Below, one piece after another: positions 212 through 22,529 of a stretch of 28,245 bases of DNA; the first letter of the stretch is position 1, and the number at the start of each line of letters is the position of its first letter. The position numbers were made by a program, and so were the translations under genes. Source of the stretch: a virus; the UHGV virus genome UHGV-0133447; one strand, 5' to 3'. Below the pieces are notes generated by a model, which was not told the DNA's origin, made no database searches, and worked only from the letters and a program-made list of their open reading frames with translations.

Positions 212-1948
212 TCACACAATGATGGGATTACTGAAAAAGTCGTCGATATCGCCAGAATCATCCTCATAGCCTTCGGAGGCACCGATTGCCATAGCGCCCG
301 CTACAATGCCGTCGATACGCCCGGTACTTTTTTTCTTGGCAAAAATTCGGTTTTCTTTCTGATCAGCCTCCGTCACTGCTGAAGCCGCATTCCAGCGAAG
401 ACAAGGGTTCGTCCTGATGATAATGACACTGTCATCAAGCAACTCTTCAAACAATTCGATGGAGTGAGGCATCCACAGCCCGGAATCTTTCGCTTTGTAA
501 TACCCTTGCCCATGAGGGATTAACGGAACAGAAACAGATGCTTCCTCAAGCTCCGGCTCAAGATATTTAATGCGATACTGGTCGAAGGCGATGGCCTTGA
601 TATCAAACTTCTGAGTCAGATCTGCAATGCGCTGGGCAACAAAGCCGTATTTCACTGCTTTGCCAGGTGTGGTGTGGATGTGACCATCTCGCTCCCAGGC
701 GTCATAAGGTACCCGGTCCGTTTTGGCCCGTTCCAGTAACGTATCTTTCGGGGTCCAGAACTCCACCAGCAACTTACGTTGTTTTGGAAAAAACAACGCC
801 AGTGCCGTCAAATCACGCGATCCGGACAGGTCTAAACCGCCATAGCATTCCTCACCTTCCAGTTCATCTGGATCAAAGCTCTCCTCACAACCCATCCAGA
901 CATCACTGCTCATCCACGGATTAGCCGCGTCAACCCACTGACAGAAGTTAAGACGTCTGACGATGCTCTCTTTCGATGGCATCCCGCGGGCCTGAGTCAC
1001 CTGCTCACGAAGATAGCTTTCTTCAAAGGTGTGACCCAGCGAAGGGTTAGCTTTCTTCCAGCAGGACTCATCCTTGAAAGGATCGTCTCCTTCATCCAGA
1101 GAACAAATGAAGGCAAAAAAGCTGTCATCTTCTATCGAACCGGCAGAAACCTTTCGGCCGTATTCGTGATAGTCATAGCAGACACTCGTTTTATCGTGCC
1201 CACTGTTGGTGATCATGAAAATCAGCGCCTGCCGACGACCTTTGGTACCGGCACGCATCATTTCAACAACCTGATTGCTTTTATGCTCGTGAACTTCATC
1301 AATAAGAGCACAATGCGGTCGCGGGCCGGACTGCCCGTCATCTGAACTGATTGGACGAAAGAAGGAACCAGACTGAAGAAAAGCCAGGTTCCATTCCTTC
1401 CCGGCACCACCTGATTTCTGAATACGTGCGGAAAGAGCTGGAGACTGATCGACCATCGCCACCGCATCACGGAAAAGGACCATTGCCTGGTCTTTCTTCG
1501 TGGCAGCGGCATAAACTTCAGCGCGTGCTTCTTTATCCGCAGTGAGACAGTAAAGCCCTATACCCGCAGACAGAGGGGATTTACCGGATCCCTTCCCGGA
1601 CTCCACATAGACCATTCGGAACCGGCGAAAACCTCTGGCGTTTTTCCAGCCAAAAATCGAACCGACGATGAAGCACTGCCATGGCAGCAACACGAAAGGC
1701 TCGCCTTCGAAATCACCACCATTGAGCTTCAGAACTTTCGCAAAATAGTCAATCGAGCGTTGCGCCGCCTCAACATCCCAGTGCAGACCACGGGCATGAC
1801 ATGACTGCAGATCGTTGAGGTGGCGCTGGCATGAGTTACGTATGTCAGGACCAGCCAGTTCTTTGCCCGAGGTTACATCCATCGCATATTGGGTTGCTGG
1901 ATCAACCGAAGAACTTATCGAGCGTGTCCTCTTCGGGGTCTTCGCCAT
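212..1948 (-). CDS. terminase large subunit (HK97-like)
   Basis: 578-aa ORF with Walker-A-like GKGSGKS and ATPase/nuclease-sized architecture. GGTGA Shine-Dalgarno 8 nt upstream of the ATG. Sits between the small terminase and portal genes. Confidence 0.9.
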   Translation of the reverse strand: MAKTPKRTRSISSSVDPATQYAMDVTSGKELAGPDIRNSCQRHLNDLQSCHARGLHWDVEAAQRSIDYFAKVLKLNGGDFEGEPFVLLPWQCFIVGSIFGWKNARGFRRFRMVYVESGKGSGKSPLSAGIGLYCLTADKEARAEVYAAATKKDQAMVLFRDAVAMVDQSPALSARIQKSGGAGKEWNLAFLQSGSFFRPISSDDGQSGPRPHCALIDEVHEHKSNQVVEMMRAGTKGRRQALIFMITNSGHDKTSVCYDYHEYGRKVSAGSIEDDSFFAFICSLDEGDDPFKDESCWKKANPSLGHTFEESYLREQVTQARGMPSKESIVRRLNFCQWVDAANPWMSSDVWMGCEESFDPDELEGEECYGGLDLSGSRDLTALALFFPKQRKLLVEFWTPKDTLLERAKTDRVPYDAWERDGHIHTTPGKAVKYGFVAQRIADLTQKFDIKAIAFDQYRIKYLEPELEEASVSVPLIPHGQGYYKAKDSGLWMPHSIELFEELLDDSVIIIRTNPCLRWNAASAVTEADQKENRIFAKKKSTGRIDGIVAGAMAIGASEGYEDDSGDIDDFFSNPIIV

Positions 1949-2366
1949 TCACTTTCACCTTCGTCCTTGCCGCTGGCGTCAGACCGAATTCAACCAGGTA
2001 ACTTTTAAAACGGCGGTCGGCATCGGCCAGCATCGAAACGGCCGGGTTAGCTTTGATAAGAAAACCACCCTCGGTCTGGACGGTATAGGTTCTTCCCTCT
2101 ACTGCGATAGTGTCGCGCAACTGAAGAATATCAGCGTAAATATCGCATAGCCGTTCAAGGGCTAAGGTGTCGGCAACCGTTAAAACCCCCATCCCGTCAA
2201 GGAGAACAGTCAACCTTCCCCAGGCGACCTTTCCCCAGTCGGTCAGGTGCGCCGGCGGGCTTGGAATTTCTCGCGCCGGAGTCGGTTCTTTATCGTTGAG
2301 TTTACGTTTGCCCGGGTTGCCGGAGACCACTTTGAGGTGGGTCGGTTTCGGGCGTCGTCCTGCCAT
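1902..2366 (-). CDS. terminase small subunit (P27-family-like)
   Basis: 154-aa ORF directly upstream of TerL with a 47-nt overlap. GGGAGG RBS upstream of the ATG. N-terminal basic region and LTPAARTKV-type C-terminus typical of P27-type TerS (memory). Confidence 0.8.
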   Translation of the reverse strand: MAGRRPKPTHLKVVSGNPGKRKLNDKEPTPAREIPSPPAHLTDWGKVAWGRLTVLLDGMGVLTVADTLALERLCDIYADILQLRDTIAVEGRTYTVQTEGGFLIKANPAVSMLADADRRFKSYLVEFGLTPAARTKVKVNGEDPEEDTLDKFFG

Positions 2367-2414
2367 CGGAACCTCCCGGAAAAAAACTTTTCATTTCGCG
2401 GTTGTGCACAAAAA

Positions 2415-2470
2415 GGAGGGGCGGCGGTCATTTCGGGTCAGACTTCTGAACTTTTGACCCGCCCCTCCCC
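2415..2470. other. long nested imperfect palindrome in the HNH-TerS intergenic region; candidate cos / terminase recognition element or terminator
   Basis: ggaggggcgg (2415-2424) pairs with ccgcccctcc (2459-2468), and inner gggtca (2435-2440) pairs with tgaccc (2455-2460). Location between the HNH endonuclease and TerS matches where HK97-type phages keep cos. Confidence 0.3.
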
Positions 2471-2483
2471 TATGGAATTGACG

Positions 2484-2825
2484 TCATCTGAACCAGTGAG
2501 AATTTGGATCAAGCGGAATACCGTTTTCATCGCAGCCGATTACGGTGCCGCGCTTCTCCATTCGCTGCTTCGTTGAGTCATGGTGCTGCTTACACAGCCC
2601 TTGCCAGTTCTTCCGGCTCCAGAAAAGCTTTTGCGCTTTCGCTATTGCCTGGCTGTCACCAGAGCGCAGAGCCTCTTTCAGTTTGTGCGGGATGATGTGG
2701 TCAACCACAGTGGCCGCTGTCACCCTGCCTTGCTCCTGGCACATGACGCATAAGGGGTGCGCACGAAGGAATATAAGGCGCTCACGGTCCCATTTGCTGC
2801 CGTATATGCGCGGTTCTTTGTTCAT
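2484..2825 (-). CDS. HNH endonuclease (terminase-associated type)
   Basis: 113 aa with Cys pairs (CVMCQEQG ... CKQHH) and VVDHIIPH HNH core. AAGGGG RBS. Immediately upstream of the terminase genes, as for HK97 gp74-like proteins. Confidence 0.85.
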   Translation of the reverse strand: MNKEPRIYGSKWDRERLIFLRAHPLCVMCQEQGRVTAATVVDHIIPHKLKEALRSGDSQAIAKAQKLFWSRKNWQGLCKQHHDSTKQRMEKRGTVIGCDENGIPLDPNSHWFR

Positions 2826-3191
2826 GTTATCGCCCCTTGAGCATTATCACAGGCACTCAGTGAATGCCTGCTGTAATGCCTTAGCTGGACTGTTCAGCGC
2901 TAGTATCGAATAGCGGCAGCGCTTCAGTTGCTTCCTGCACTGCTTTCATCGTCTTTGCCACCACTTCAGTCTCTGATGTGACACGGCTGTATTGCTGGAT
3001 GAATAACTGATACTTGAGCGTACTATCCTGAACAAATTCTACAGCGACCTTTGCAGCGGCAGTGTCTTAGTTCAGGGTGGAAAGTAGGTTAAGACGAATC
3101 TGCTGGGCGTCGGTGATTTCGACCATGTCGTACCTCTATGCGATGTGGGGAGCATTATCGAAGCCATTCGGCAGAATGGCTCCTGTAATGC

Positions 3192-3392
3192 CTACTGTCG
3201 TTCCAGGTGTTCGTAACGTGAAATTGTCTTGCCGTTTGCGTTCATCACGTAGGCAATCTCTCCCTGCTTCAGGAATACGTTCTGGTCCATTCCAGACACC
3301 GCGATACTCTGCTGGTTGGGGTTGAAACCAACGCTCAGGCCACAATGGATTTCTTCGCCACCATCTGGTGACATCACTTTTACTGTTAACAT
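3192..3392 (-). CDS. hypothetical small protein (66 aa)
   Basis: ORF preceded by AGGAG with about 8-nt spacing. Lies between the lysis cassette and the HNH gene on the late strand. No family recognised. Confidence 0.45.
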   Translation of the reverse strand: MLTVKVMSPDGGEEIHCGLSVGFNPNQQSIAVSGMDQNVFLKQGEIAYVMNANGKTISRYEHLERQ

Positions 3393-6493: not shown

Positions 6494-6496
6494 GGC

Positions 6497-6522
6497 CAAA
6501 GAAAAAGCCCACCGAAGTGGGC
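6497..6522 (-). terminator. intrinsic terminator (minus strand) with UUCG-type tetraloop
   Basis: Minus-strand reading ggcccac-ttcg-gtgggc followed by TTTTCTTTGG. Lies downstream of the TerB-like gene. Confidence 0.5.
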
Positions 6523-6896
6523 CTTACAGCTATCATCATTTTTTATTAGGTGTGGTGCCGGGTGCCTCCCGGTAAGTCGCCGCCAGTCCACAGACGACTC
6601 GCAATGCGCAAAAAAACATATCAGACTGGCAATGCCCCTCCGCATAGGGGGATTCACCACACGGATAATTTAGGATGTAGTCATAGGCGGCGTCAATAAC
6701 TGACACTCTGTCAAAGGCATCATTACGATGCCTTTTGCACAGTGCTAATCACTGGATCTAATAAGGGGCCAGAGCAAAGCGATTACCCCGGCTACCAGCA
6801 CGCCATCAGCCAGGATTGACATCATTTTGCTGGTGAAGTCGATAGCAACCACCAGAAACAAAAGCACCCCGGCTGCGGCCCAGCGAAGTTTACCGA

Positions 6897-8505: not shown

Positions 8506-8581
8506 TGGTGCTGGTTGACGGAATCGAACCGCCGACATCCTGCTTACAAGGCAGGCGCTCTACCAGCTGAGCTAAACCAGC
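8506..8581 (-). tRNA. tRNA-Thr (anticodon UGU), phage-encoded
   Basis: Minus-strand 76-nt cloverleaf GCTGGTT-TA-GCTC-AGCTGGTA-GAGC-G-CCTGC-CTTGTAA-GCAGG-ATGTC-GGCGG-TTCGATT-CCGTC-AACCAGC-A-CCA. Acceptor 7 bp, D-loop GG, anticodon loop with U33 and A37, canonical T-loop, encoded CCA. Confidence 0.8.
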
Positions 8582-17972: not shown

Positions 17973-18880
17973 CCCCGGAACCCCCGTGGAATCGTGGTTT
18001 GTACTGGACTAATTGAATTAACATCCCGCGGTCTGGTTTTGTCCCACGACTCCCTTGGCGGGCGGCCTTTAGCATCCCAGCGGATGGCGCTTTGCAGATA
18101 TCCCTCGAATTTTTTAGGGCCGAAAAGTGTCTCGGGTCGCATGTACTGGTATTGCTCGTCGTTGCCATGCCAGTGCTCATGCTTGACGTCGATTACCAGA
18201 TTCAAGTCGCTAACGGTATGACCTTCGCGGAGGCGGGCGCGAATGTTCTCCAGTGAGGTCTTAGATTTCTGGTAACGGGAACCGCTGACCAGATTCAGGT
18301 GTGCCAGAACTTCGATCGCGTTATCGGTAATAACAACTTCAGGATCCGGCTTATCGTCGGGTTCCGCAGGAGCCCGACAAGAAGGTTTTTTAGATGACGG
18401 ATCTAATGACGGATCTAATGACGGATCGCCTTCAACCATTGAGGGGTCCTCCCGCAATATTTGAGGGGGTACAGACCCATTATTTGAGGCATCAGAATTT
18501 GACCCCTCAAATTTTGAACCCTCAAATTCTGAGGCATCAAATTTTGATTGTTCACGTGGCGTTGCGTAGAAGATTTTTGCTTCAGCTGCTGCACGTTCAA
18601 GCATGTCCACATTGAGTTTATAAACGTTCGAATTATTCTTTCCACCCACGCGCCGTTCCTGCTTCTTCAGCCAGCCTTTAGCCTGAAGCTTTTTGATAGC
18701 GCTGCGGACAGTATTCTCGCTCTTGGCGCCGATCTGTCGCTGAATAGTGGTTACCGCTGGCCATGACACACCTTCGTCATTACTGAAATCTGCCAGGCGA
18801 GCCATGACCGCTATTTCTGAGATTATCAGCCCTTTGAAAGCGCATGCTTCCCATACGAGGCCGTGTAATTTACTGCTCAT
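17969..18880 (-). CDS. replication initiator / replisome organiser (lambda O-like) containing the origin iterons
   Basis: N-terminal winged-HTH-like domain, low-complexity linker (DPSLDPSLDPS), conserved-looking C-terminal domain. The linker-coding DNA carries tandem and inverted short repeats. GAGGG RBS. Confidence 0.65.
   Translation of the reverse strand: MSSKLHGLVWEACAFKGLIISEIAVMARLADFSNDEGVSWPAVTTIQRQIGAKSENTVRSAIKKLQAKGWLKKQERRVGGKNNSNVYKLNVDMLERAAAEAKIFYATPREQSKFDASEFEGSKFEGSNSDASNNGSVPPQILREDPSMVEGDPSLDPSLDPSSKKPSCRAPAEPDDKPDPEVVITDNAIEVLAHLNLVSGSRYQKSKTSLENIRARLREGHTVSDLNLVIDVKHEHWHGNDEQYQYMRPETLFGPKKFEGYLQSAIRWDAKGRPPRESWDKTRPRDVNSISPVQTTIPRGFRG
18393..18540. repeat. iteron cluster (candidate origin of replication) inside the replication gene
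   Basis: Tandem 12-mers atgacggatcta (18393-18430, about 2.5 copies). Multiple ATTTGAGGG-type repeats in both orientations, e.g. tttgaggggg 18460-18469, ccctcaaatt 18503-18512 and 18519-18528, tgaggcatca twice. Confidence 0.5.
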
Positions 18881-20029: not shown

Positions 20030-20105
20030 CTGTGTACATATTACACGAAAGAAATGAACCTTCAAGGTACTTGTACCTTGAAGGTACACACGGTTTAATT
20101 TCAAT
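20030..20105. promoter_or_regulatory. divergent cI/cro promoter-operator region
   Basis: Palindromic operators gtaccttgaaggtac (20074-20088) and accttcaaggtac (20058-20070). Minus-strand TTGAAG-16-TAATAT promoter candidate toward cro. Plus-strand TTTAAT -10 candidate immediately before the cI ATG. Confidence 0.5.
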
Positions 20106-21187: not shown

Positions 21188-21900
21188 TTACCACAGGTGT
21201 CTTCGGGAGGGGTTGCGGAGCTGGATTGACCACCAGCAACAGAAACTCACCCGACATACAGCAGCCGTTTAGCCCACGGCGTCGGGGGTCCAGTAGACCT
21301 GGATTAATACTGTAGGGGTTGTGCCGGTTGGTCGCCGGCGCCCCGCCCGAAGATTCCTGATCGAACATGGCGAAAGCCGACAGCGTTGAAGGCGATTTTC
21401 TCGGTTTGCGCGCTAAACAATAGCGGGGGTGAAATCGGGGCGGAGAAGCAGAATCCGCGATGTCGGGACTTGATACTTCCGGCCAGACCAACAAGCCGAA
21501 TGATCGCGTAACGGTCCTTTGCATCTGCCCCGGCGAGGTGGCGCCGCCGGACCGGGGCAGATGAATCGTACACAACATGAAAGCGCATTCCATCTTCATC
21601 CGTCGTGGGGACTGGTTTGTAACTGAAGGAGTGCGCTTCCAGTTGTGAACGGCAATATTCACGACCGTTGTATGGCACATGCAGCGTTAGCAGCCCGGAT
21701 GGTTCCCTTGAAGTTCCATGCGCTATCCGGACAACTGGAATGTGCAAGCCAAGTGTTTCAGGCACGACGTGCGCCCCACCAGCGCGGCGAAAAGGTGTGA
21801 CCCCCGGGAAGAGTCCGGGACACAACAGGAAAGAGTACTGAAGATGCCAGGAAACGCCCTACCGCCAGGCAGATAGACGGGTTATCCCGCAAGGGGTGGC

Positions 21901-22043
21901 GGCAGTGCTCTTACCGTTGTGGTGTAGCTCAAATGGATAGAGCGCCCCTTATGTGGGGAGTTGAGCACTAACCAATGTTCGCAACACAGGTTATCTCATG
22001 CGGCCGGCCGGACGTTATGCGGGTTCAAATCCCGTCACCACAG
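21901..22043 (+). ncRNA. candidate tRNA-like structured element, copy B1
   Basis: Leader ggcagtgctcttaccgttgtggt. TGTGGTG (21918-21924) pairs with CACCACA (22036-22042). D-arm-like GCTC-AAATGGATA-GAGC. T-arm-like GCGGG-TTCAAAT-CCCGT (22019-22035). About 60 extra nt between the anticodon-like region and the T-arm. No encoded CCA. Confidence 0.3.
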
Positions 22044-22290: not shown

Positions 22291-22529
22291 AACCTAGTTA
22301 ACTGTGCTGTGTGTAGTCTTGGCGGTTATCCAGTTTTCCACTATCCAAAGGAGGAAGAGGATAACGTTCTGATGGATAACCGCCCTTTTTACACAATACA
22401 AAAGAGCATCACCGGGCGACGGGCTCATTACCCAATCCACCCGGGCGGCGTCCTAACCGCAGGTGCTCTTCTGTGTTGTGTACGGAGAAATTCCCGGCGG
22501 TGGCAGCCGCCTTTCGAGAGGGTAAAACC

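Follow-up and report, generated by a model that had tools for sequence, protein, structure and literature searches.

A probable HK97-like cos region, with a near-invariant candidate small-terminase box, in the HNH-TerS gap of a temperate siphophage-type prophage

Which function is carried by the short non-coding gap that separates an HNH endonuclease gene from the small terminase gene in the virus genome UHGV-0133447 (28,245 nt, hereafter the window)? The original prediction had pointed to a nested palindrome within this gap and read it as a cos or terminase recognition element of the HK97 type, with a simple terminator as the alternative. On the minus strand the order is HNH (2825-2484), a gap of 117 nt (2483-2367), TerS (2366-1902) and TerL (1948-212), and both flanking genes turned out to be as described, on the minus strand, with the gap being an intergenic region of a temperate phage. 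The genes and the translation signal of TerS are the following:

2484..2825, minus strand, HNH endonuclease gene (113 aa), homologue of HK97 gp74 (74% identity, E = 4e-61)
1902..2366, minus strand, small terminase gene TerS (154 aa), Pfam Terminase_4 / P27 family (E = 1.5e-24)
212..1948, minus strand, large terminase gene TerL (578 aa), Pfam TerL_ATPase and TerL_nuclease
2372..2377, minus strand, Shine-Dalgarno sequence GGGAGG of TerS, by direct reading of the sequence

The Pfam HNH match of the endonuclease is weak, and TerL is 30% identical to HK97 gp2 over about 530 aa (E = 5e-66). Upstream of HNH come holin and endolysin genes, and the closest public sequences are Klebsiella prophage-derived records with at most 98% identity. 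This gene set and order (HNH, gap, TerS, TerL) is that of HK97, in which, as in its HK022-type relatives, cos lies between HNH and TerS. The gap had also been taken to be the only intergenic one, which does not hold, as the stretch 2826-3191 upstream of HNH is equally devoid of an intact ORF. Between the HNH start and the next gene (2826-3135), the coding strand holds only fragments of 27-31 aa, and this DNA may be a decayed gene or non-coding DNA with hairpin elements.

Three phage genome ends served as anchors for the cut: those of Escherichia phage HK97, which are known, those of Pantoea phage AH07, mapped from virion reads, and those of Proteus phage Pm34, given by the boundary of its linear record. 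All three align to GAC-N10-C(C/A)TTT with the cut within the gap, which places the following elements:

2417..2426, minus strand, predicted 10-nt cohesive end CGCCGCCCCT, aligned to the HK97, AH07 and Pm34 ends
2427..2429, minus strand, conserved GAC directly 5' of the predicted bottom-strand nick (2427/2426), identity 0.77
2410..2416, minus strand, predicted left genome end with first bases CCTTTTT, matching the AH07 start; the T-run is a possible terminator tail

The alignment predicts a nick of the coding (top) strand at 2417/2416 and one of the opposite (bottom) strand at 2427/2426. The predicted cohesive end CGCCGCCCCT aligns with the terminal CGCCGCCAAA of HK97, with 10 nt that are absent from the AH07 record and with the first 10 nt of Pm34, while the GAC recurs in each anchor: the AH07 right end stops at ...CTGAC, the Pm34 boundary reads ...AGGAC, and in HK97 the last 10 nt come after ...ATGAC. 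On the other side of the cut, conservation of the TTT at +3 to +5 reaches 90% or more.

The ends of HK97 are 10-nt 3' overhangs (PMC9410871, PMC11331095), and its record is numbered consistently with the published TerS contacts (T16, C:G21 and the A-tract 24-29; PMC11331095), so that base 1 of the record corresponds to +1 of the cos cleavage site. Its right end, ...AAATGACCGCCGCCAAA, aligns to ...AAATGACCGCCGCCCCT in the window; it reads ...CCCCAAATGACCGCCGCCAAA, and the minus strand of the window ...CCCGAAATGACCGCCGCCCCT/CCTTTTTG, with the slash marking the cut. Over the 60 nt to the left of the cut, 44 positions are identical to the HK97 right end (z = 7.2 against shuffles), and AAATGACCGCCGCC is the same in both.

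For AH07, the ends come from an analysis of virion reads by PAUSE and PhageTerm (PMC8567787), and the TerS of this phage is 89.6% identical to that of the window. The AH07 record starts with CCTTTTTATG (CCTTTTTATGCACAACC), its base 1 corresponding by DNA search to position 2416 of the window, and ends with ...CCTCCTGAC. When end and start are joined, the sequence is short of exactly 10 columns (CGCCCGCCCC), which Pantoea prophages and a metagenomic contig of otherwise identical sequence (L104) do contain. Such a loss would follow from end repair of a 3' overhang, as a 5' overhang would be filled in and kept. The cohesive end of AH07 is thus inferred here, from our own alignment, to be CGCCCGCCCC, the end type not being given in PMC8567787. 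A 3' overhang is likewise expected in the window, its polarity deriving from HK97 and from the 10 nt lost in the AH07 assembly. Finally, the linear record of Pm34 breaks as AGGAC/CGCCCCCTTA CC (...AGGAC/CGCCCCCTTACCTCTTTT), i.e., at the same boundary between GAC and N10.

Two further phage records were considered as end anchors and discarded: that of Klebsiella phage P7641 ends exactly at the TerS start codon, an arbitrary linearisation, and for Providencia phage PSTRCR_117lys a circular record had been opened within the conserved box described below. A literature search with six overhang sequences, within literature of incomplete coverage, returned nothing phage-related and no earlier description.

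The match to the HK97 right end and the coincidence of the AH07 and Pm34 ends uphold the reading of the HNH-TerS gap as a cos or terminase recognition region of the HK97 type, and the comparison with HK97 cos that had been proposed as a check gave clear homology to the left of the cut. The support for cos is by homology, through these three phages. On this basis the 117-nt gap is very likely the cos region of a temperate siphophage-type prophage with HK97-like packaging, the cut positions and the 3' polarity being transferred from homologues.

The resemblance to HK97 is confined to one side of the cut at the sequence level. To the left, the window shares with HK97 the homologous 60 nt, the GAC followed by a C-rich 10-mer, and a G-run about 45 bp upstream, although the last three bases of the cohesive end are CCT here and AAA in HK97. 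To the right, no similarity between the window and HK97 was detected (z = 0.5), and the small terminase, a Terminase_4 (P27) protein, has no detectable sequence relation to HK97 gp1. In both, nevertheless, a C:G patch and then an A/T tract lie 10-40 bp in from the left end, and TerS starts at a similar distance from the end (50 nt in HK97, 51 here). The locus is in effect a mosaic, with an HK97-like left half, a P27 / Terminase_4 right half, and the joint at or next to the cleavage site. AH07 (MZ501270) resembles the window in its TerS family, in the conserved box and in the left end CCTTTTT, and differs in the spacer and in its inferred cohesive end. Proteus phage vB_PvuS_Pm34 (KY420199) shares the upstream G-box and the GAC-N10-CC arrangement, whereas its TerS is only 44% identical and its box is diverged. 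The cos site is treated in neither of the two publications.

To locate what is conserved around the predicted cut, a scan for TerS relatives with one genome per species gave 80 loci. About 40 belong to Gammaproteobacteria, among them Klebsiella, Pantoea, Serratia, Proteus, Providencia, Pectobacterium, Erwinia, Plesiomonas and Pseudomonas. Viral contigs, scanned by pattern, contributed some 120 further loci carrying the box; the IMG/VR loci were found by exact match to the box, so that only the 33 distinct loci selected by TerS protein similarity count for conservation. Across these 33, mean pairwise identity at positions relative to the predicted cut is as follows:

-80 to -58, 0.28
-57 to -30, G-box block, 0.68
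spacer, 0.40
GAC, 0.77
10-nt cohesive end, 0.57
+1 to +9, 0.76
+10 to +38, 29-bp box, 0.978
TerS gene, all positions, 0.67
TerS gene, third codon positions, 0.45

The conserved blocks span at least ten genera, and two of them lie on either side of the cut:

2447..2470, minus strand, upstream block at -54 to -31, made of the G-box GGGGAGGGGCGGG (2470-2458) and then TCAAAAGTTCA (2457-2447), identity 0.675 against 0.28-0.40 in neighbouring non-coding DNA
2379..2407, minus strand, near-invariant 29-bp box GCACAACCGCGAAATGAAAAGTTTTTTTC (+10 to +38), 97.8% identity in 33 loci

The G-box stands at an equal distance from the end in HK97 and Pm34, and the upstream block is a candidate cosQ-like or nuclease-positioning element. 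The most conserved element of the region is however the 29-bp box, which lies inside the 2367-2483 gap and outside the palindrome that had drawn attention to it. With 97.8% identity against 67% for TerS as a whole and 45% for its third codon positions, the box is constrained far more than the gene that follows. HNH homologues (60-100% identity) lie upstream of the box in all related loci with sufficient flank, and TerS follows it in 155 of 157 box loci, starting at +51 in 141.

From its conservation and position, the 29-bp box is probably the small-terminase binding site, analogous to cosB. The mapped TerS site of HK97 is at +15 to +29 (PMC11331095); the conserved box of the window is longer and of different sequence, and its position and its combination of an A/T tract with a C:G patch parallel that site. 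In the Pm34 lineage, with its distant TerS, the box is related but diverged (CACATCACCGCAGGTTAGAAAACTTTTTTT), as expected if TerS and its site co-evolve. The box could instead be a control element of the terminase operon—a promoter, an operator or a 5'-UTR signal—and in most loci it does stand directly upstream of the TerS ribosome-binding site, and it contains a weak GAAAA/TTTTC dyad. However, in 7 of the 157 loci an insertion of about 77 nt puts the TerS start at about +128, and the box nonetheless stays 10 nt from the cut, which argues against a purely translational role; a scan of the gap for sigma-70-like promoters made no call, and Rfam gave no match in 2367-2483 at the gathering threshold or at E <= 1. 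Given also the parallel with the HK97 site and the co-divergence with TerS, a control element in place of a terminase binding site appears very improbable. The insertion is AT-rich and was seen in L016, L043, L045, L046, L170 and others, among them Pseudomonas, Symbiopectobacterium and Arsenophonus prophages.

A search for boxes lacking TerS, made to test the idea of satellites raised below, gave a single case. In this short IMG/VR metagenome contig (L147, 5243-6501) the ORF that comes after HNH and a complete cos region is tail-fibre-like (279 aa); the locus could represent an orphan cos, a prophage rearrangement or an assembly error. At a contig end of Raoultella scottii (L007), a TerS 97% identical from residue 4 onwards is preceded by AT-rich DNA with neither box nor G-box, which suggests that the cos-TerS junction of this prophage is disrupted.

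Sequence and profile searches with TerS against HK97 gp1 and PDB chains found no relation, so that details of DNA recognition may differ between the two, and for the Terminase_4 / P27 family the searches made found neither a DNA site nor a solved structure. A single-sequence AlphaFold model has a mean pLDDT of 69, with core residues 40-130 mostly at 73-92, and the topology helix, helix, beta-hairpin, helix; it links TerS to HK97 gp1 by fold comparison only, with a weak Foldseek E-value (0.36) for this single-sequence model. Conservation within the family is highest in the N-terminal arm, which is basic, and in the motif EFGLTPAAR, which contains an invariant arginine. These would loosely parallel the HK97 clamp, in which TerS holds DNA by its N-terminal arm and an arginine of the C-terminal helix (PMC11331095); the invariant R134 and the basic arm are candidate residues for such a clamp.

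What, then, of the palindrome? It consists of a perfect 10-bp inverted repeat whose arms are separated by 34 nt:

2415..2424, no strand assigned, left arm GGAGGGGCGG (plus-strand letters), overlapping the predicted cohesive end
2459..2468, no strand assigned, right arm CCGCCCCTCC (plus-strand letters), within the G-box

An inner 7-bp repeat (CGGGTCA at 2434-2440, TGACCCG at 2455-2461) and a small TCAGA/TCTGA pair are also present. The nested palindrome of the original prediction thus stands as regards the perfect 10-bp repeat and the existence of inner repeats, but the 7-bp pair shares 3 nt with the outer right arm, so that the two are partly exclusive and the nesting is not clean. The minimum-energy fold of the gap is a single long bulged stem (13+4 bp, plus a 4-bp tip). 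Perfect inverted repeats of at least 10 bp with a loop of 3-60 occur in 1.4% of 3000 dinucleotide-preserving shuffles of the 117-nt gap (p about 0.014), and ten such repeats are found across the whole 28-kb window; the palindrome is therefore unusual locally and not globally. Folding of the whole gap is unexceptional (z = -1.8 as RNA, z = -1.4 as DNA), while the 57-nt hairpin segment alone, on the minus strand, reaches -27.9 kcal/mol (z = -3.2). Elsewhere in the window, 18439-18532 holds three overlapping perfect inverted repeats of 10-11 bp within about 95 nt, and perfect repeats of 12 bp are also present at 20058-20085, 21522-21563 and 22321-22384.

With ten perfect repeats in the window and an ordinary fold of the gap, the palindrome might be a chance feature of a non-functional spacer in a prophage that packages its DNA otherwise or is defective. 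This is extremely improbable in view of blocks conserved in at least ten genera and of three phage genome ends that coincide at the site.

The palindrome could also be a recognition element in itself, either an inverted repeat read by the nuclease or a cruciform or hairpin needed at cos for cleavage. Complementarity between the G-box and the C-rich cut site is indeed found throughout the family, with a mean duplex energy of about -20 kcal/mol even for non-cognate pairs; in this register-free test cognate pairs do slightly better (-20.8 vs -20.0 kcal/mol, Wilcoxon p = 0.016), although the permutation takes no account of shared ancestry, and HK97 and Pm34 have the same arrangement of a G-run and a C-rich segment. 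Yet the helix itself is not maintained. Among 30 relatives, 62.4% of cells are paired according to the structure of the window; shuffles average the same 62.4%, and sliding the register by one gives 62.5%. A column-wise covariation test on the same 30 gave no excess of compensatory changes, and RNAalifold on the relatives did not recover the palindrome helix. Individual relatives often pair the G-box with the C-rich end in shifted registers, with per-sequence z values from +0.5 to -3.2, and lineages with overhangs such as CGCCGCTTGT or CGACCGTAGT have little or no complement to the G-box. The viral contig L121, identical in its left flank, has A where the window has C at minus-strand position 2418, which breaks the 10-bp match, so that the perfect match in the window hinges on this one base. 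The allele of L121, CGCCGCCCAT in place of the CGCCGCCCCT of the window, is the commonest of the Klebsiella type. The centre of symmetry moreover lies about 25 bp from the cut, unlike a dyad of the cosN type. A recognition role of the palindrome as such is accordingly improbable. The complementarity is mainly compositional, a G-rich block facing a C-rich end, and the palindrome is mostly a by-product of two conserved blocks, not maintained as a hairpin and not itself the conserved signal.

A related reading takes the minus-strand hairpin with its T5 run as a rho-independent terminator in a secondary role, which could coexist with cos and would end transcripts of HNH and the lysis operon in the lysogen or when RNA polymerase is not antiterminated. 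The GC-rich stem is stable, many relatives fold a stem that ends beside a T-rich stretch, and the statement that the gap has no clear U-run has to be reversed: TTTTTG (2414-2409; UUUUUG in the transcript) directly follows the hairpin on the coding strand, so that the terminator alternative had been dismissed for the wrong reason. Unlike a rho-independent terminator, however, the stem encloses 34 nt, far from the canonical form, and a consensus scan made no call; the compact and conserved hairpin with a short loop followed by a U-run is not what is found here, as no helix is conserved, the minimum-energy fold allows the three Us beside the stem to pair with its 5' side, and several lineages have an interrupted T-run (CATTAACG, CATTCGTG). 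The TTT after the cut is moreover present in HK97, which has no strong hairpin, so that these bases belong to the conserved genome end and can be explained as part of the cleavage site, and the terminase and head genes downstream still need to be transcribed. A terminator function is for these reasons rather unlikely.

The arrangement can also be set against the cos of lambda (cosQ, cosN, cosB). Lambda has 12-nt 5' overhangs at a partly symmetric cosN, three R sites, an IHF site and a gpNu1 protein with a winged helix-turn-helix, and no HNH partner. The window resembles it in having an upstream element tens of bp before staggered nicks and, as predicted here, a small-terminase binding region between the nick site and the small terminase gene, and the G-box may by analogy be a counterpart of cosQ. 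No sequence similarity to lambda cos was found, nor any repeated, R-site-like sites in the gap beyond short chance matches. A TerS of the Terminase_4 family and asymmetric flanks of the predicted nicks further set the locus apart from a lambda-type cos.

Under the preferred reading of the gap as an HK97-like cos region, the coding strand would present in order the G-rich block (2470-2447), a variable spacer, GAC/CGCCGCCCCT/CC and the near-invariant box (2407-2379). By analogy with HK97, and given the conservation, position and fold described above, a ring of TerS subunits would bind the box and, once bound, would position TerL and the HNH protein to nick both strands upstream; staggered by 10 nt, these nicks would leave the 10-nt 3' cohesive end. 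In HK97 itself, cleavage is assisted by the HNH protein gp74. Packaging would run toward TerS, TerL and the head genes, i.e., toward lower window coordinates, and each round would stop at the next cos; the G-rich block upstream may, speculatively, aid termination as cosQ does in lambda. The palindrome would then result from a chance complementarity of the G-rich block with the C-rich cohesive end.

The locus is very probably an HK97-type cos module of a well-known kind, with nothing categorically new and unsurprising to a specialist, in which the candidate TerS box and the mosaic joint are modestly interesting. The predicted ends and packaging direction are useful for annotating the prophage and for predicting cos-dependent transduction in Klebsiella, the comparative set provides a testable candidate recognition site for the widespread Terminase_4 / P27 small terminases, and the locus offers a clean example of module exchange exactly at the cos cleavage site. 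A wider reading, which we regard as tentative and rather doubtful, is that cos sites of the HK97 type consist of two exchangeable halves meeting at the nick site: the left one (HNH gene, G-box and cohesive end) could travel with the nuclease partner, and the right one (box and P27-family TerS) could be passed on almost invariant from Klebsiella to Pseudomonas. The shared box could then be a signal for cross-genus transduction or be exploited by cos-carrying satellites, and the complementarity of G-box and cohesive end could, instead of being compositional, be a cosQ-like termination signal read in the opposite orientation.

Some other elements of the window deserve mention. Two copies of a hairpin element of roughly 45 nt lie upstream of HNH on the minus strand, at 2841-2885 and 3150-3195 (RNA fold z = -3.5 and -3.6). 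Their outer stem GCAUUA/UAAUGC is conserved, whereas the inner stems differ and are still complementary (CAGGCA.../...UGCCUG in one, GAGCCAUUC/GAAUGGCUUC in the other). A 40-nt core of the hairpin is 97-100% identical in phi80, mEp390, Pectobacterium ZF40 and an Elizabethkingia phage, and Rfam gives only a sub-threshold STnc450 match (20.5 bits, cut-off 37); the element could act as a terminator or regulatory RNA, or represent a mobile intergenic hairpin. Upstream of the holin and lysis genes, positions 6494-6691 (minus strand) give a full-length match to the Rfam sRNA STnc100 (100.7 bits, E = 4e-21), a position that suggests the late-operon leader region of a lambdoid phage. A 126-nt Rfam tRNA match at 21918-22043 (plus strand, 40 bits), not confirmed by ARAGORN, may mark an attachment site with an interrupted or partial tRNA, and a tRNA-Thr (TGT) gene lies inside the prophage at 8506-8581 on the minus strand.
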